Virus record (IMG/VR): IMGVR_UViG_3300027278_000001
Span: 1-64,000 of that record
DNA from: a virus
Lineage: Duplodnaviria; Caudoviricetes
DNA length: 64,000 nucleotides
Strand: one strand, 5' to 3'
In this document: positions 2,910 through 54,400 of the stretch, in pieces
Position numbering within the stretch: position 1 is the first letter of the stretch
Layout of the letters: the number at the start of each line of letters is the position of its first letter
Position numbers and translations under genes: made by a program
The notes under the pieces: model-generated
The model's database searches: none
Told to the model about the DNA's origin: nothing
Seen by the model: the letters and a program-made list of their open reading frames with translations, nothing else

Positions 2910-4997
2910 GTGTCTACTCCTATCGCACGCTACTTCGCATCGATGTCAATACAGGTGGACAAGAAGAGTGTTCTCGCTGTAGATAATACCTTGAATCGGC
3001 TTGAGAAAAAGCTTAAGAATTTCGGTAAGTTTACAAACAAACATCTTAAACTCAACTTTGATATTAATAAATTCACTGTTGATAAAAGAAAGCTTGGAAT
3101 GGTTCTAGGGGATGCTCTAGATCAAGTAAGTATGAAAACCGTGTTTGAGGTTAGCAGATTCTCTGTAAACCAGAGAAATTTGCAAGCTGCAATGATGCGT
3201 TCTATGCGCGGGGTAGTTGCTCCAGCCCCGAGAATTAGCTCAGTAGCTCACCCTCAACAGGCAGCAGTTTCACGTTCACAAGCTAGCAGAGCTGGTGCTA
3301 ATTACCTTCACGCAGGTGGTGCAGCAGGTGCATTCATGCGTTATGGCGCTGGCAGCCTGCCGCTTGTTGGTGGTGCCTATGGTGTGGGAATGTTGAACCA
3401 AGCTAACCAAGAAATGGTTAGCGCCAACATTTCAGCTGAAGCTGTGCTTGGGTCTAATGCTAAGGTGCTTTTAGACCGACTTGCAGAACGCAGTAACTAC
3501 ATGGGCATTAGTTACAAAGATACTCTACCTCAATTTACAAAATTTATGGCATCAGCTACACCTCTGATGGGTGTTGATGCTTCTCAACAAACCTTTGAAA
3601 GTTTTATGCAGTTCGGTCGCACTCGTGGTGCAGACAAAATTTCCATGAACCGTGCTCTGACAGCTGTTGGTCAGATGTCTGCCAAAGGTCAGGTAATGGC
3701 AGAGGAATTGAAAAACCAGCTTGGGGATGCCTCCGGTTTTGGTGAACTACCTCAATTATTTGCTGAAGCCTACCAGATTAAGTCAGGTGGGGCGCTTAAA
3801 GGCGCGGATGCTAGAGCTGCCCTGATGAAGGCTATGGAACAAGGTCAAGTTAAATCTGCTGACGTACTCCCTATTGTTTCTCAGTTGATGAATGAATTGT
3901 CAAAAGGTGGTATTGAACAAGCCAGGAATAGCTCAGTTGCGCAGCAGATGCGAGCAGAGAACGCTTTAATGGGACGTGGAAGTCTGCTACAGACTTTCTC
4001 TGAACAGGGAGGTGAAAAAGGGTTCGCTAATTTCTGGAAGGAGATGACAACACTTTTCAAAGGTGCAGCTCCATTAGTTAAAGCCTTGGCGGGCACTTTT
4101 GAGGACTTAACTAAGACATTACAAGCCCCTGTGTATTTGTTTGGTGAGTTGAACAAAACACTTTCTGCCGTTTCGCAGATGACAGGCATAGCTGAGAAAA
4201 ACTTCACAAATCTTGCCTTGGTTGGCGGGTTGATGATGACAAAGTGGGGGAGAGTAGGTATCATGTTCTCCACAATGTTAATCGTTTTGGAGGATATAGC
4301 TATGGGTGTTTCCGGTGATGGTGATAGTTTTACAGGACGGTTCATCAAGTGGATGGAAGAGTCTGGTGTTGTAATGGGGCCGTTTGAGAAAGGTCTGTTT
4401 GGTGTATCTGCTGGAATGCTTGCAATTGCAGCTGCTTTGAAAGCTATCAGTGCAGCAACTAGTTTGCCAGGGATTCCTGATTTGTTTGATCCTACAAAAG
4501 ATAAGAATGGTAAGACTGGAGGTTCTAAGTGGGGTAAGACTCTGCTTATGATGACGGCTGCTCTTGGCGCTCCTGCTTTGGTTGCTGGCGTAACTGGAGT
4601 GGGTGTGAACGAACTACTTGATCCGCATATCTCAGCTCGTAACACAGTAGCAGAGCGTTGGAATGATCCAATGTCACCTCTGTATCAGAACAGAGACTTA
4701 CAACTGCAAGCTCAAAATGATATTCGTGACCCCTCCAGTAAATTCTACAACAACTTACCACTGTTTGAACAGATGATGACCCAAAGAGGTCAACAAGAAA
4801 CCTTGCAAAAGATGTTGGAAAATCAGGCTGCTGGAATCACACCACTTCCAGGCATCACGCCAATGTCTAGTAAAGTTGATATGACCATCAAGGTTGATAT
4901 TACAGCCGCATCGGCAGAAGATTTCCAAGAGAAGTTTAAAGAGCGCTTGTCAGCAACAATCCAAGAAACTTTACAACAATACGGTCAAAAGGAATAG
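2910..4997 (+). CDS. Tail tape measure protein
   Basis: 695 aa, Ala/Gly-rich and helical. Contains the QMSAKGQVMAEELKNQLGD tape-measure motif and hydrophobic segments, in the expected position. Confidence 0.9.
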   Translation: MSTPIARYFASMSIQVDKKSVLAVDNTLNRLEKKLKNFGKFTNKHLKLNFDINKFTVDKRKLGMVLGDALDQVSMKTVFEVSRFSVNQRNLQAAMMRSMRGVVAPAPRISSVAHPQQAAVSRSQASRAGANYLHAGGAAGAFMRYGAGSLPLVGGAYGVGMLNQANQEMVSANISAEAVLGSNAKVLLDRLAERSNYMGISYKDTLPQFTKFMASATPLMGVDASQQTFESFMQFGRTRGADKISMNRALTAVGQMSAKGQVMAEELKNQLGDASGFGELPQLFAEAYQIKSGGALKGADARAALMKAMEQGQVKSADVLPIVSQLMNELSKGGIEQARNSSVAQQMRAENALMGRGSLLQTFSEQGGEKGFANFWKEMTTLFKGAAPLVKALAGTFEDLTKTLQAPVYLFGELNKTLSAVSQMTGIAEKNFTNLALVGGLMMTKWGRVGIMFSTMLIVLEDIAMGVSGDGDSFTGRFIKWMEESGVVMGPFEKGLFGVSAGMLAIAAALKAISAATSLPGIPDLFDPTKDKNGKTGGSKWGKTLLMMTAALGAPALVAGVTGVGVNELLDPHISARNTVAERWNDPMSPLYQNRDLQLQAQNDIRDPSSKFYNNLPLFEQMMTQRGQQETLQKMLENQAAGITPLPGITPMSSKVDMTIKVDITAASAEDFQEKFKERLSATIQETLQQYGQKE

Positions 4998-16655: not shown

Positions 16656-16678
16656 GAATAGCACGTTAGATTTTGTTG

Positions 16679-17695
16679 TCAAGCACGTTCAGTGAGAATG
16701 TGTAGGTATTTATTGTAGTTCACTTCCCCCGGCAATTCCTTATGAACATAATCAACAACTTTGGCTTCAAAGAAGTTCTTATGTCTGCCAGCACTAAGTA
16801 GCCACTCCATCCACTCCAAAGGATTCTTAGGGACTTCTGTAAAGCTAATGTACCCACGCTGGAACAATCGAAGCTTCCCTAGATAATGAATAAATCCTTT
16901 CATTCCCTCCACAGTCAAATCCTCCCCACCACCAAGCTCAAACACCAAATCAATGTAAACATCCTCAGCTTCTTCAAACTTCTCAACAAGCTTAAATGTA
17001 ACATCCTTCAGAACTAAGCGTTCAACTTCTGTCAAATCATTTTCCATTTCCTTGACAGTACGGATATTGTTGGTCACGTGTTCTTGCTCATCCTTTAGTG
17101 ACCACTCATTAATATCATTGAAACCATTAAGGATACCCGAACGCTTCTGATTCAGCAATGTTGCAAAGGCACCAAACAAACCAATGCCCTCTCCCATAAG
17201 AATCTGAGTCAGCTTAATTGCAGCACGGAGTTGATCACTCGCCCCAACTGGCGTCAAATCCTCTACCATAACATCTAACTTATCTGCCATCTCTTTATAT
17301 GAAGCAAAAGCAGACCAATCATCGTTACTAAAACCAAAAGTCTCAGCAGCTAGAGCATATGCACGTTGGTGAATAACCTCACGAGCTGCAAAAGTCATAA
17401 GCATGTTTCTGATTTCATTGTTCTTAATCAGATGCAAAACTTCTGTATAACCACCACCAACAGTCTTGTCCATCTCTGTAAATAGACACAAAGTCTTATC
17501 AAGGATATTCTTATTCTGCTCGTGACTGATACTCTTCGTCTTCAGACCATCCTTGGAAAAATACTGCTGAATATCATCTTGCAAGTTAATTTGATGTACG
17601 TCCCAATACATATCAATATTGTGTTTCTGAGCTGCCTCCGCAGCCCAAGAATACGTGAATGGGCGATACGATTTACTCTCTTCAAAAACTGACAT
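16679..17695 (-). CDS. nrdB: Ribonucleotide reductase class Ia beta subunit
   Basis: Di-metal ligands FTEMD, REVIH, EGIGLF and DEQEH, plus the radical Tyr in HQRAY. Confidence 0.95.
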   Translation of the reverse strand: MSVFEESKSYRPFTYSWAAEAAQKHNIDMYWDVHQINLQDDIQQYFSKDGLKTKSISHEQNKNILDKTLCLFTEMDKTVGGGYTEVLHLIKNNEIRNMLMTFAAREVIHQRAYALAAETFGFSNDDWSAFASYKEMADKLDVMVEDLTPVGASDQLRAAIKLTQILMGEGIGLFGAFATLLNQKRSGILNGFNDINEWSLKDEQEHVTNNIRTVKEMENDLTEVERLVLKDVTFKLVEKFEEAEDVYIDLVFELGGGEDLTVEGMKGFIHYLGKLRLFQRGYISFTEVPKNPLEWMEWLLSAGRHKNFFEAKVVDYVHKELPGEVNYNKYLHILTERA

Positions 17696-39670: not shown

Positions 39671-39894
39671 ATTCTAGCAGCCTTGTTACGCTTGTGCAAC
39701 ATTTATTGTGCTCTTGGGCTACAATTTATGTGTTATTGGCTGATTTTGTGGCCGAGAAGCTACACAGTAGCGACTACCAACGACCTTGTACCCACAAATC
39801 AGCATGATTGCAAGGGCTGATCATCGTAACGCAGTATTCATTCCAAAATCCCGCATTCCTCTGAGACTATAGCCACCTAGTGAATACTTGTCAA
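39671..39894 (-). promoter_or_regulatory. Two leftward sigma70 promoters
   Basis: Minus strand TTGCAC-17-TAGAAT (39699-39671) and TTGACA-17-TATAGT (39894-39866). Confidence 0.75.
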
Positions 39895-40892
39895 CCATTT
39901 TCTTGCAAAATTCCGCCGTTACGTTCATAAATTTCTATGATCTTTTCTAGATTGTAAGCCCACGTTGTTTCTGTATGCCCATCAGGCATGTCATACTTGC
40001 TGAGAACACCACACTCTAACTCCTGTTTACACTCCCTCTCTGCCTTCTTCGTAGAAGCGGTATCTGGAAACTCATGGAAGGAATGCTGTATTATCTTATA
40101 AAGAGATTTGGTATTTTGTTGTTTAGCCCTTTTTACGCTGTTTCGTGCAATGCCAAATTTAATAGCCACCACATTTGTATCGTCCATAACCAAGTTTACA
40201 TATGCTTGCTGTTGGCGTTGCACATTACAAAAGCACGACCTTCTCCCTTGCTGTAGACCGGAACTCTGAGACTCACCTTGTCCTCCACACTCAGGACAGA
40301 ATACATGCCAGTATATTTTGTGACCCATATTATTCAGTCTATCACTCCTCCAGAACTTAGTATCTGGATGAAATGCCCCAGAATCAAAGAATGACTGAAT
40401 CATGACATCGTCAGGTTTTGTATTAACTTTAGAGATAGTAGTCAGTTGACATGCTGGGCAACCACGTCCAACATTAACTAGTGTGGCCACAATCCCACTC
40501 ACCCACTCCCCATGTTTATCGCAGAGCATTCTAGTATTAGTTTTCTGATTAAGCCACTTACCCTCAAATCCAAGAAATGTATAACCCAGCTCAGAAGCTT
40601 TGCGTGAGCATAATATAGTGTATTGGGCTACAGTCCACAGCGGGTGGCTTCCACAACCACACGGAACACTACCCTTTAATAGGTTGCTTTTTAAACACTT
40701 AAAATAACCCTCGCCAAACAGATCAGGGTCTTTGGAACACTCATGGCACTTCAGGATATAGAACTTATTAGACCCTTTCCCGTTATCGTGCCCTACCACC
40801 TCTAACTGTGTATCCTTACCGAGTAGGGATACTTGTTGACTCCACTCGTCTTTCTGTAAACCTTTGTCACTAATCAAGTCTTTCAAATTCAT
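39891..40892 (-). CDS. Free-standing homing endonuclease-like protein, copy 3
   Basis: Likely ATG at 40892 (MNLKDLIS) with its own promoter TGGACA-16-TATAAT (40951-40924). Same modules and C-terminal KFGI...FPD.AS.KKAERECK...MPDGHTETT domain as copies 1 and 2. Confidence 0.75.
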   Translation of the reverse strand: MNLKDLISDKGLQKDEWSQQVSLLGKDTQLEVVGHDNGKGSNKFYILKCHECSKDPDLFGEGYFKCLKSNLLKGSVPCGCGSHPLWTVAQYTILCSRKASELGYTFLGFEGKWLNQKTNTRMLCDKHGEWVSGIVATLVNVGRGCPACQLTTISKVNTKPDDVMIQSFFDSGAFHPDTKFWRSDRLNNMGHKIYWHVFCPECGGQGESQSSGLQQGRRSCFCNVQRQQQAYVNLVMDDTNVVAIKFGIARNSVKRAKQQNTKSLYKIIQHSFHEFPDTASTKKAERECKQELECGVLSKYDMPDGHTETTWAYNLEKIIEIYERNGGILQENG

Positions 40893-40987
40893 CAACTTTA
40901 CCCATAAAATAATTAACCCAACCATTATACACGACTTCACACCAATGTCCACAAATAAATTATTTTCTTGTGTTGAGTAGAAAAATG

Positions 40988-41015
40988 TTGACAGTAATCA
41001 GAAAGGGTGTAGAAT
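40988..41015 (+). promoter_or_regulatory. Sigma70 promoter facing a non-coding segment
   Basis: TTGACA(40988-40993)-16 bp-TAGAAT(41010-41015). Confidence 0.75.
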
Positions 41016-41021
41016 GGTTGC

Positions 41022-41300
41022 CGTTGAATCATTTAACAGAAATGACACTTGGTTCAGCTCGTGTGGGAGTTTTTGGGTAAACCGCCTTGTACCACATTAA
41101 AGAGAAAAGGAAAGCAGGCTCAAACGTGGGAGAATGCCTTTAATTAGGTTGCTAGCACACGGCTAAGACTCCAGCAACGGAGGAAGGCTAGCACGGAGAA
41201 AGACTGGTTGCAAGGTCTTATCTGTCCCGCACCATTTTGGTGTGTCCCCTGTAGAGGGAAGAATCTTGTGGCTCCGGGCGAATAGAGAAATTTCTATTTT
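41022..41300 (+). ncRNA. Candidate structured non-coding RNA containing a CCA-ending cloverleaf-like domain
   Basis: Own promoter, no ORF above about a dozen codons found on +, many hand-folded stems, and a weak AT-rich hairpin plus T-run at 41281-41303. Folded by eye only. Confidence 0.5.
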
Positions 41301-41305
41301 ATTGG

Positions 41306-41334
41306 TTGACAGGTTCTGAGGATTGTTCTATAGT
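41306..41334 (+). promoter_or_regulatory. Sigma70 promoter for the rightward early operon
   Basis: TTGACA(41306-41311)-17 bp-TATAGT(41329-41334). Confidence 0.8.
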
Positions 41335-41450
41335 TCGGTCTAGGCAGAGAAATTCTGTATGGCTGGGCTAAGGGAGAATCTGTCCAGAATTTGTTCACCA
41401 AGCGAATAGAGTAATACTAGATAGTAATAAATACATAGGAGATTAGAAGA

Positions 41451-41759
41451 ATGAGTAGCTGGGATTATCAAACAGAATACACCAAATTACTTTCCAAACT
41501 GGAAGGTCACACTGGGGATTGGATCAGCGTAGAAACACAAAACCCTCCCACAGAGGGTACACCTGTTTATTTCATGTGCGGTGTTGACTACAAAGGTGAA
41601 GCTCTTTATGATGTTGGTTATTGGGCTGATTACACAAATACACATTGGTATCAGCTCTGTCTAGAATCTGGTGAAAATGCAATTGCTGGTGAATGGGATA
41701 CTGAGTTTGGCAATTGTGAAGTTACTACAGCTTGGAAGTTTGTGGAGTATAAGAAATGA
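41451..41759 (+). CDS. DUF551-like protein
   Basis: WISVETQNPP...V.F...W...VT.AW pattern, with GGAG SD. Confidence 0.55.
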   Translation: MSSWDYQTEYTKLLSKLEGHTGDWISVETQNPPTEGTPVYFMCGVDYKGEALYDVGYWADYTNTHWYQLCLESGENAIAGEWDTEFGNCEVTTAWKFVEYKK

Positions 41760-44700
41760 TCACACAACTAAATATGCACACAACTGTAGCAGGAGAATTA
41801 CCTAAGCTTATCCAACAAAACAAAGCTCAAACATTTATTCCTTATGCTGATGTATTGAAGCTTAAAGACGAATTGGTTGCAGCTTACGAGCGTGAAGGAC
41901 ATACGGTCTATCAGAATGCTTGTTGGGTATCTTTCCTATTGACAAAGGCGGGTTTGAAATGATCAAACACAACGGAGAATACTACACTTGGGAAATGGTG
42001 TACAAAATCTCAGGACTCTCTGGTGAAGATTTTCTACATGATAGTGTAGGCAGTTGGGAACATTTCATTCATTGTCTTGAGAAATGGGAGGATAAATCAT
42101 GATCGTATCAGAACTAATCGAAACCTTGCAGAATATGCCGCAGGATGCTAGAGTCATGTCACTTGATGACAGCTATTACATGAGTTATGCTGAAGTGAAT
42201 GCTGTTAAGCAAGAAAACGTAGGTTGGGATGCCGTGAATAATGAACCAATTGTTGAGGTGTATATTCTATGACTAAAATCCCTTACGGAAGTCCGGGTAA
42301 TATTCCACCAGTTGAAGGCGTGATTTCATCACAATGTAAAGCAGATGAGTTTGAGAACTACATACGTGAGTTTGGTGTAGTAAATGCTTGTGAGTGGTTT
42401 AATCATAGTTATGATAGTGAATTTACTAAGGAGACTATTGAACTGCTGCTTGAGCGTAGTGGTCTGGAATATTCTTATCACTGAGGCTTGACACACCAAC
42501 ACAGATGCCCTAGACTATCCTTTCATTAACGAACGGAGCTTTACAGATGAACTACTACACAGCAGACATGAGTGATGACGAGTTTGAGGCTAACCGTAAG
42601 AGGGCTTATGAATTTTATGAATACTACGTCTATGGTTCTGGTTGTGCTCCAAGCTTCTCCAGTGGAATTTGTGAGTCTGTGACAGCAGGCTATGGACGAC
42701 TTGACTACTACGGCTACTGGGAGTATCCTCTAATTGTTGATCAAGAAACCTTGAGAATTATCCCACTGGAGTCAAAGCCTTGAACTTATTCGCCACCAGC
42801 CAATGCCCTGTACAGTCTGCAAAAGAACATTGCAACGTACATAACGTGAAAATGATTTTGGAAGTGGCACAGATGCTCAGTACAGCTCATTTCGTTTTAG
42901 ATGGTGTTCAGGTTGGTTATAAGCCTACCCATAAAAATCATCCGTGCAGCGTTTTCGTCCGTAGCACAAGCGAAAACTACAAATGGCGTATGAGCATCTA
43001 CAAGCTTTGCTATCTGAATACACATTCAGAACAGGCAAAGTGCATAAGTCGTCTGAATTGCTTATTTCCTTAGCAAAACAGCCCTCTAAAATCGAGATTG
43101 GCGAGAGGACGGGCTTTGCTATGACTATGCCTGAATCCTTTCAAAGACTGGGCATTTTTGACCAGACAAAAGCGTACCAAAGTTACTTGCGTTCCAAGTT
43201 CACCGAGTGGCAACAGCGTGAAAAGCCAATTAAAGTGTGCTGGGGCTTGCGTGGTTCTCCAGATTGGTATAAAGTGTAGTTGTTGATTAATCACTAGGAG
43301 AATAAAATGAATTTTAAAGAGTTGCTTGACTATCCTGTTGAAAGTGTAGATAACGATGCTTATGTTCTCGTTGGTTTCTATTACAACCATCTGCAAGGTA
43401 TGGACGATCTGTATAGTCTCGATGATTCTTTTAAAGCACAGGACAGAATCTCAATCCATTACCTAAAAGACTTTTGCTTTGATGGTCGTAGGGTTTGGCG
43501 TCTTTACTATGTAAAATTTGATGGTCAGCTGGTAATGATTTGCAAGAATGCAGGACGTGATGGGGATGACCATCACGGTAATAAAATCTTCAATACAGAA
43601 GCATATTCTGCAATGATCCGTTATATTAAAAGTTTTGAAACTGTTGATGATTGTGATCAAATGGCTGCAACTTTAGAAGATGATGCCTCTGAGTTTGTAA
43701 GCTTCTACGGTAACAGTCTTGGTAGTTATTTTGAAAGATACTAGGATATGACTAAATGAACCGTACAATCGAAGCAATCCAAAAAGATATATCCAACGAC
43801 TTTGCTTTATCTGACTTGCTTTCTGAGCGGATTAAAGCCAACATTCAATCTGTTGCAGATGAAGTGCTGATTAAATATCCCTATCACAAGGATGCAATTG
43901 ATAGTATTAAGCTGGGAGCTGCTGAAGCTTGGGTGAGTAGGTTGTGTGGGATGCTCACTACAAAAGACAGGGATTATTTGTTGCAGCTTTTACAAAATAT
44001 TGGTTGACAGCAGACGATATGCTGTCTATGATCGTACACAGGGTACAAACACATTAACGAAATGTTGGAGGAAATAGAGATGCACAATCCAGACAAAGAA
44101 TTTGCCGAATTTCTTATGTGGATAGTCGTGGTTGGTGGTATTGCGCTTAATATCTTTGTTGACCGCAATGTATACCCACGAGAAATTATTAAAGCTCAAG
44201 AACTTTGCAAAGAAGCAAATGCAGAACTTAAAGAGTTTAATGTAGGGAGCCTCTATATAGATGTTCTGTGCAGCAATGGTGCCAAATTTAGATTTGATGC
44301 TCAACAAGTACCAGACTCAGAGAAGGAAATCTAAATGCACCAGTCCACATACGAATCATGGACAGCTCTTAACAAGCAAATGTCCAAGGAAAAACCACTA
44401 CAATTCGCTGTTTCGTTTGATAGTGATGAAAAGGTATGGACTTATAGTCGGCCAGCTGTTTATGTGTCAATTTAATAAGACTTTATAGAGGAGAAATATT
44501 ATGGTAGTTCTTTCTGTCTGTTTGTGGATAGGTGCATTTTGCATTGTAATGTTCATTAAGAACGAGTTTACTTATAAGATTCAAATTGGTTGGGTTAATG
44601 ATGTTTACAACAATCAAGTTAACGGAGATGGCACACTTGATTACTCAGATATTCCAACATATATGTCTACCCTGTTTAATCCGTTTCTTTGGAGACATAA

Positions 44701-53699: not shown

Positions 53700-54270
53700 G
53701 CTAATACGTCAATTATCTGTCTATCAGGTAGCCTATCTATTCCCCTCTTTTATCCCTATCTATAAGCCCCTTAAACAAGCGCATAAGCCTTAGCCATACT
53801 AGCCTATGGTATAGCCTGTAATGCTGGCTAAATACGTCTGTAAACAGGCTCATTTGAGCTTATTGTGGCTAGTATAGTGTTGCCTATTATGGTGATTACA
53901 TACCTTATGTGGTTAAGCCTATTCACTCTCCACTACCAACCTTCAGCATCAACTCAGCACAATTCACCGTACTTTGTACAAAACATACGCTGGCTAGTCA
54001 CTTGGAATACACATCCTCAGCTATTAGCTTTGCCTATGTCATCTTGCCTGCACTATCTGGTCGAACCTATGTCCTGCTATGGGTGACCTATAGATCATCG
54101 TCTAGTGAGCTTGCCAGATAGGATAGTGACGATATTTCTAGCAGTCTGGGGCTTATGAGGGTGGCGGCTATTTGTTGCTAAGACCCTCAGCAATAGAGAC
54201 AGTAATTTCTTAGTAAACATAAGCTGCCTATAGATATTTACAGGTACGAGAAAAGGAGAACACCTATGAA
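53700..54270. repeat. Non-coding region with clustered CCTAT-core repeats (origin or terminus candidate)
   Basis: GCCTAT at 53731, 53802, 53882, 53917, 54032 and 54226. ACCTAT at 54065, 54086 and 54262. CCCTAT at 53754. Confidence 0.6.
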
Positions 54271-54283
54271 AGCATGTTCTCCT
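54248..54283 (-). terminator. Terminator ending the leftward unit
   Basis: AGGAGAACA(54254-54262)/TGTTCTCCT(54275-54283) stem, with a T-run on the minus strand. Confidence 0.7.
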
Positions 54284-54400
54284 GAGAGTGGGGTTTGGGA
54301 ATTTCTTACTTTTCCAGAATCTTTCTTTAAGGATGCTGCCCGCAAAGCCCCGTTCTAGAGCCTTCCGTGAGTCAAGTTGGTTATAACCTAAACCAGACAG

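Follow-up and report, generated by a model that had tools for sequence, protein, structure and literature searches.

The window analyzed here is a stretch of 64,000 nucleotides. It belongs to an 84,057-bp IMG/VR virus record (IMGVR_UViG_3300027278_000001). The closest cultured relative of this phage is Pseudomonas phage vB_PsaM_M1 (Ounavirinae, 89 kb, from seawater; here M1). The window genome and M1 have mosaic blocks in common, with 65 to 88% identity. The RNA element described below lies in a gene-free region (Table 1). Two divergent strong promoters are located at the left edge of this region, and the GC skew flips sign there.

The left neighbor of the region is a homing endonuclease gene. 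Its product is 56% identical (query residues 21 to 351) to an M1 endonuclease that is encoded elsewhere in M1. Because the homology begins at residue 21, translation probably starts at the ATG near 40892, which lies downstream of the leftward promoter (40951 to 40924). HNH or homing endonuclease genes adjoin the element in three of the six genomes that carry it. On the right, the product of the first early gene had no family match. Farther along the plus strand (42780 to 43279), the homolog of the 167-aa pyrimidine dimer DNA glycosylase of M1 is present as two overlapping ORFs in different frames (42780 to 43073 and 42983 to 43279), which suggests a frameshift or an assembly error. ARAGORN found zero tRNA genes across the 84,057-bp genome; M1 has three (Pro, Asn, and Thr). 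A second gene-free block, at 53757 to 54300, is conserved with M1 (68% over ~590 nt; M1 16662 to 17230). It lies between convergent gene blocks and is a better origin candidate than the region of the RNA element.

Table 1. Features in and around the gene-free early region, by position in the window
Feature	Position	Strand	Description
Homing endonuclease gene, left neighbor	39891-40952	-	phrog_681, free-standing
Gene-free region	40953-41450		498 nt; contains the RNA element
Early promoter P1	40988-41015	+	TTGACA, 16 nt, TAGAAT; 11/12 consensus positions, sigma70-like
P0, 5'-terminal hairpin	41023-41058 (41023-31/41050-58)	+	9 bp; from minimum-energy folds; begins at the predicted 5' end
P2 hairpin	41058-41104 (41058-60/41102-04; 41061-66/41092-97)	+	Conserved loop containing UGGGUAAACC
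A-rich single-stranded linker	41105-41124	+	Unpaired in consensus folds; partly conserved
Junction core	41125-41276	+	P4, P5, P6, P7, P8; covariance model R1 and alignment A6
Core arm P4	41136-41149	+	Compensatory changes
Core arm P5	41150-41193 (apical stem 41169-82)	+	Compensatory changes
Core arm P6	41194-41224	+	Compensatory changes
Candidate kissing-loop contact	41174-41211 (41174-78/41207-11)	+	GCAAC (P5 loop) with GUUGC (P6 loop)
Core hairpin P7	41228-41244	+	Covaries
Core hairpin P8	41247-41258	+	Model R1 and alignment A6
Tail 1/anti-tail	41278-41291/41292-41300	+	Weak hairpin T1, then a U-rich run
Domain 2	41292-41411	+	Long imperfect hairpin, ~45 bp; base extended by anti-tail/tail 2 pairing
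Promoter P2	41306-41334	+	11/12 match; within the 5' strand of the domain 2 hairpin
Tail 2	41402-41415	+	Copy of tail 1; from comparison of the tails
First rightward early gene	41437-41453 (start codon 41451)	+	AGGAG ribosome-binding site; 102-aa protein

The element was retrieved from six genomes by BLAST and pattern scans. These are the window, M1 (81% identity), and the IMG/VR contigs L100, L101, L102, and L212 (68 to 76%). A search for relatives had been proposed when the locus was first read from its sequence, and it gave five relatives that carry the element with covarying helices. The six sequences represent about four lineages, and many of the compensatory changes counted below derive from one or two events. 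The element is single copy in each genome, with no extra copies in the window genome or M1. Strict pattern scans did not find it in 185,579 prokaryote genomes and returned only the known members from IMG/VR. A single loose viral pattern scan added one true homolog, L212, alongside 115 chance loci. A metagenome scan with a 17-nt pattern returned chance matches only. A search anchored on the protein of the first downstream gene retrieved zero relatives. A search anchored on a DenV-like gene recovered L101 and L102, together with a relative that lacks the element (L103/G001). In our literature search we found no paper on phage M1 and no RNA described at the locus of the element.

The flanking genes on both sides vary among the genomes, with a different first downstream gene in each. 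The conserved unit is therefore the noncoding block. In L100 and L212, the first downstream gene encodes an HNH endonuclease. In L101 (contig 3300033074_001499), the product of the first gene after the element (L101:4100-4483) is a 127-aa protein whose C-x5-R motif (VCVCSAGLLRS) is typical of low-molecular-weight phosphotyrosine phosphatases or ArsC-like enzymes.

In all six genomes, the element is preceded by a strong promoter of the sigma70 type in the equivalent position. The equivalents of P1 were located by a promoter scan in M1, L102, and L100, and the hexamers were read directly in the upstream sequence of L101 and L212. P1 itself had been proposed in the sequence-only reading, and its near-consensus sequence and its presence in all relatives bear this out. 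Transcription would start near 41022, as judged from the position of P1. The same reading took the next promoter, at 41306, as the right-hand limit of the RNA. The promoter itself (here promoter P2) holds up with its 11/12 match. It is not a limit, as the RNA runs through 41306 and conservation and covariation continue to about 41415. The 279-nt stretch from 41022 to 41300, as originally delimited, folds no better than its shuffles (z, -0.96). Promoter P2 is present in four of the six genomes (the window, M1, and L102 by scan; L101 as read in its alignment row). It is missing from L100 (scan) and from L212 (alignment row).

The element is noncoding. No ORF is conserved across the homologs, and the stop-free stretches vary in strand and frame. 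Substitutions among the homologs show no 3-base periodicity, and the indels are mostly not multiples of 3. These results agree with the original view that no credible ORF lies here. The small ORFs in the element were rejected, including M1 CDS 3441-3614. This CDS (L001:3217-3390) encodes the 57-aa hypothetical protein UZS00817.1 and lies entirely inside domain 2 of the structured RNA. The window has no open frame that corresponds to it, and the annotation is probably spurious.

The fold of the element is plus-strand specific. A consensus structure computed for the six sequences has an energy of -67.9 kcal/mol on the plus strand versus -29.7 kcal/mol on the minus strand. It contains 112 G:U or U:G paired cells (19% of the paired cells), which would be A-C mismatches on the other strand. 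Compared with shuffles, the whole element reached z scores of -2.5 to -5.0 when folded as the plus strand; for the minus strand the range was -0.1 to -2.9. Covariation extends over 390 nt of helices. A plus-strand structured RNA of ~390 nt, spanning about 41023 to 41415, is well supported by these comparisons. This agrees with the earlier proposal of a promoter-driven, noncoding, structured RNA of an undescribed family, as the six homologs covary, the fold is plus-strand specific, and the Rfam searches were null.

The element may instead act at the DNA level without any RNA function, as a replication origin, an operator set, or a recombination cassette between the divergent early promoters. 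Its position between these promoters, at the sign change of the GC skew, would fit such a role, and the mosaic flanks suggest recombination around the element. We consider this very unlikely because of the strong strand asymmetry of the fold and its G:U pairs. The helices that covary over 390 nt also argue against it, as does the repeat island at 53757 to 54300, which is conserved with M1 and is the better origin candidate.

The RNA folds into five parts. From the 5' end, these are a terminal hairpin, a second hairpin, a multi-helix junction core, a three-part alternative-pairing region, and a hairpin of ~45 bp. The structure is well supported; the function we infer. All six genomes have a 5' hairpin of 6 to 9 bp. 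Its sequences are unrelated among the genomes, and it always ends 3 nt before a conserved UCG. The 9-bp stem at this conserved position (P0) displaces the stem TCATTT/AAATGA of the sequence-only reading. The second 5' stem of that reading, GTGTGG/CCACAT, belongs to the P2 hairpin and is backed by compensatory changes; it becomes GGATAGG/CCTATCC in L101 and L102. In the P2 hairpin, 94% of cells are paired and 5 pairs have changed on both sides, compared with 33 to 50% pairing in slid controls. A long-range helix closing domain 1 (41057-61/41275-79) was dropped because P0 and the P2 hairpin occupy its 5' strand.

The junction core follows the linker. It has 85% of cells paired, and 18 of its 41 pairs have changed on both sides, counts that lean towards the structure of covariance model R1 because alignment A6 was fitted to that model. 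None of 500 shuffles reached as high, and slid controls gave 38 to 50%. The counts for domain 2 and the P2 hairpin come from an unfitted MAFFT alignment and are in agreement. The helices of the core vary around invariant single strands: ACNCGGCUA (41157 to 41165), UGCAA, and AUNUUGNGGCUC (41263 to 41274). These invariant junction nucleotides suggest a bound factor or ligand. The P4 loops are of the GNRA type in most homologs (GCAA, GUAA, and GAAA). An RNase P-like GGAAAG motif was considered and rejected; it is not conserved in L101 or L102.

The loops of P5 and P6 may form a kissing contact. In a fixed register, 87% of cells pair, versus 0 to 37% in slid controls. Both loops are altered in L101 and L102, where the pairing still amounts to 6 bp and one bulge. 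Mixing loops from different genomes gives less stable pairs than the cognate combinations. The contact is suggestive only, because the compensatory support comes from one lineage.

The sequence-only reading had described the segment from 41126 to 41234 as a cloverleaf with a CCA end and proposed a tRNA mimic or decoy against tRNA-targeting defenses. Folded in isolation, these 109 nt do form the cloverleaf as their minimum-energy structure (-36.4 kcal/mol; z, -2.15; 4/200 shuffles as good), and its three arms (P4, P5, and P6) are backed by compensatory changes. M1 also encodes RNA ligase and kinase genes, which are associated with tRNA repair. The acceptor stem fares worse. The acceptor-like stem (41126-30/41226-30) can pair in 90% of cells across the six sequences and has one covarying pair, but this is not above shuffled controls, and in the 279-nt fold the stem is replaced by the hairpin CGCACCA/UGGUGUG. 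The proposed CCA end is found in two of the six genomes: the window and M1 have ACCA, L101 and L102 carry ACCT, and the sequence in L100 and L212 is unrelated. The ACCA is not a free 3' end, as it sits in the 5' strand of the covarying helix P7. The loops have 6 to 9 nt and no tRNA features; the absence of a 7-nt anticodon loop and a TTCRA T-loop had already been noted. The probable loop-loop contact is between arms 2 and 3; in tRNA, the first and third arms make the elbow contact. ARAGORN retrieved no tRNA or tmRNA genes from the window, from the whole 84-kb genome, or, with the threshold relaxed from its default, from the cloverleaf segment, and Rfam gave no tRNA, tmRNA, or Y-RNA match. We give the mimic or decoy almost no credence. 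The cloverleaf is an internal junction of a larger RNA, not a tRNA mimic.

The closure of the core is ambiguous, with two or three alternatives. Two candidate closing helices use the same 5' strand (41125 to 41130). It can pair with 41226 to 41230, forming the acceptor-like stem, or with 41272 to 41276, forming a helix here called helix B. Helix B is 97% paired but invariant. The acceptor-like stem overlaps the P7 helix by 3 nt. P7 is fully different yet complementary in L100 (CAUCUAC/GUAGGUG) and L212 (ACACAUC/GAUGUGU). The acceptor-like stem and helix B may be alternative conformers.

A CsrA/RsmA sponge that uses repeated GGA motifs had also been proposed for this RNA. Five A-N-GGA motifs are present versus 2.6 expected, a count reached by 45/500 shuffles. 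The total of 9 GGA motifs does not exceed the 9.7 expected from shuffles. Of the nine, eight are in helices and the other is in the linker; no hairpin loop contains one, and several are not conserved in L100, L212, L101, or L102. A sponge is extremely improbable on these counts.

The 3' half of the element contains two tails and one anti-tail. Tail 1 comprises the ~10 nt that follow the core, and tail 2 those that follow domain 2. They are the same within each genome and different between genomes, because both are complementary to the one anti-tail. The tail motif was rejected as a genome-wide site; it has only two occurrences in the genome, with near-matches at chance level. T1, the hairpin of tail 1 and the anti-tail, has an energy of -7.5 kcal/mol in the window and -5 to -12 kcal/mol in the relatives. 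A clear U-run follows it only in the window and M1, and T1 is a poor terminator in four of the six genomes. The extended form of T1 is in competition both with helix B and with the domain 2 base. For a transcription-terminating riboswitch or attenuator, the comparison shows conserved alternative pairings, a weak T1, and a U-run in two of six genomes. The sequence comparison identifies tail 1, the anti-tail, and tail 2 as a conserved alternative-pairing device that has coevolved within each genome.

Domain 2 has the same shape in all six genomes, with energies of -43 to -54 kcal/mol and z scores of -5.0 to -7.4. It is 84% paired and contains 16 pairs changed on both sides, a level reached by 1/500 shuffles. 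The anti-tail and tail 2 add 5 to 8 bp to its base. The hairpin ends 26 nt upstream of the ribosome-binding site of the first early gene. It places a long imperfect duplex of at least two helical turns between the early promoter or promoters and the first gene, as expected of a phage early RNase III processing site. L100 and L212, which do not have promoter P2, keep the basal helix of domain 2 by compensatory changes (UUGGUUGAC/GUUCACCAA in the window and CUUGGAGAG/CUCUCCAAG in L212). The basal helix can form only in transcripts from P1.

As the most economical reading, we favor a cis-acting early leader that contains a conformational switch. The leader would probably be processed, and its compact 5' domain may persist as a stable RNA. 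We rate this model as evenly balanced between right and wrong. Host RNA polymerase would transcribe the conserved plus-strand RNA of ~390 nt from P1. During transcription, the anti-tail would pair first with tail 1 to form T1, and this hairpin would compete with core closure. Some transcripts may stop at T1 in the window and M1, in which a U-run follows it. Transcripts that read through would fold domain 2, and tail 2 would then capture the anti-tail and lengthen the duplex. RNase III cuts long hairpins in the early transcripts of T7 and lambda, and the long duplex of domain 2 is by analogy a likely substrate. Its cleavage would yield a compact 5' RNA protected by the terminal hairpin and, separated from it, the early mRNA with a defined 5' end. 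The choice of conformer may depend on a host factor or ligand at the invariant junction nucleotides. Several observations count against this model. T1 is weak, and the closing helix of the core is ambiguous. The sampling is thin, at six sequences in about four lineages. Promoter P2 gives the downstream genes their own promoter in four of six genomes, where the leader may be dispensable, and G001, a complete 90-kb relative, does not contain the element.

The main rival is a trans-acting stable noncoding RNA. The compact 5' part (about 41023 to 41300), set free by termination at T1 or by processing, would bind a host or phage protein and divert it early in infection; the sole role of domain 2 and promoter P2 would be to restart the mRNA. 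This RNA is possible but somewhat doubtful. Its single-stranded junction and loop nucleotides do not change although the helices do, and the candidate kissing loops and the GNRA-type P4 loops of most homologs are features of tertiary contacts. The 5' hairpin is typical of stable RNAs. The dispensability of the leader where promoter P2 is present would also fit, as would the conservation of the element regardless of the neighboring genes. Endonuclease genes adjoin it in three of six genomes, as they often do beside conserved essential sequences. Against this, T1 is a poor terminator in four of six genomes. The covarying base of domain 2 and the tail/anti-tail set show that read-through transcripts are under selection.

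The core may also be the catalytic or binding pocket of a new class of self-cleaving ribozyme or ligand-sensing riboswitch, with T1 and domain 2 as the alternatives of its expression platform. The multi-helix junction, the invariant unpaired nucleotides, and the probable loop-loop contact are consistent with this model. So are the conserved exclusive pairings (the acceptor-like stem versus P7, helix B versus extended T1, and tail 1 versus tail 2). Several ribozyme and riboswitch classes occur in phage noncoding regions. However, the Rfam searches found no resemblance to a known ribozyme or riboswitch. With Rfam 15, the window had no match at the gathering score, and the plus-strand element had none at E values up to 10. 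Three homolog loci were searched at E values up to 5, and the only overlap was a sub-threshold freshwater-2 match at the 3' edge of the element in L102. This match is at chance level (25 bits versus a gathering score of 49.9; E, 4.7). No Rfam family matches the element, including 6S, RNase P, tRNA, tmRNA, Y RNA, riboswitches, ribozymes, and GOLLD/ROOL/HEARO. The downstream genes differ in every genome, so the gene context gives no clue to a ligand. A ribozyme or riboswitch of this kind is quite unlikely.

A broader role for the core can be formulated. It would be the sensor or catalytic center of a new large phage RNA class, either a switch that responds to a factor or ligand or a self-cleaving ribozyme. 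In the first seconds of infection, it would set the shares of transcription from the strongest early promoter that go to a stable RNA and to the early mRNA. This is a speculative and rather unlikely role.

To our knowledge, descriptions of large structured RNAs from virulent phages are very few, and hardly any concern an RNA at the head of an early operon. The element is a good experimental subject, with covarying helices, invariant junction nucleotides, a probable kissing-loop contact, and a coevolving three-part pairing. M1 has been cultured and its host is known, which makes the predictions directly testable. Binding of a host factor or ligand by the core would reveal a new RNA-based layer of early phage control. 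If the element is only a processed leader, it would still explain why an intergenic block is conserved while the surrounding genes are shuffled.

Three kinds of known RNA resemble parts of the element. T7 R0.3, which follows the tandem promoters A1 to A3, and the lambda N leader are RNase III processing hairpins in phage early transcripts. They have in common with the element tandem strong host-type early promoters, a noncoding leader of several hundred nucleotides, and a long imperfect hairpin before the first early gene. They have no sequence relation to it. In the element, the upstream leader is itself a conserved, covarying multi-helix fold, a promoter lies inside the hairpin, and a tail/anti-tail switch flanks it; cleavage here is only predicted. 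Riboswitch and attenuator leaders (for example, the lysine and cobalamin classes) resemble the element in their junction with invariant unpaired nucleotides, kissing-loop candidate, exclusive pairings, and small hairpin with a U-run. Unlike these leaders, the element has no Rfam match at E values up to 10, its downstream genes differ in every genome, its terminator is weak or absent in four of six genomes, and no ligand is suggested. tRNA and the tRNA-like RNAs (tmRNA, bacterial Y RNA/YrlA, and the phage T4 stable RNAs C and D) have three consecutive arms, linkers of 0 to 1 nt, and a short closing helix, as the core does. The element differs from them in that its CCA end is not conserved, its loops are not of the tRNA type, and neither ARAGORN nor Rfam detects it; its junction is internal to a larger RNA.

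We found no described RNA family to which the element belongs. Fremin, Bhatt, and Kyrpides (2023; PMC10690425) reported 10,006 candidate structured RNAs from IMG/VR intergenic regions, most without a function. Their catalog resembles the present work in its data source and in its covariation in phage intergenic regions, and it includes motifs upstream of genes. The element may be present, unnamed, among these 10,006 candidates.
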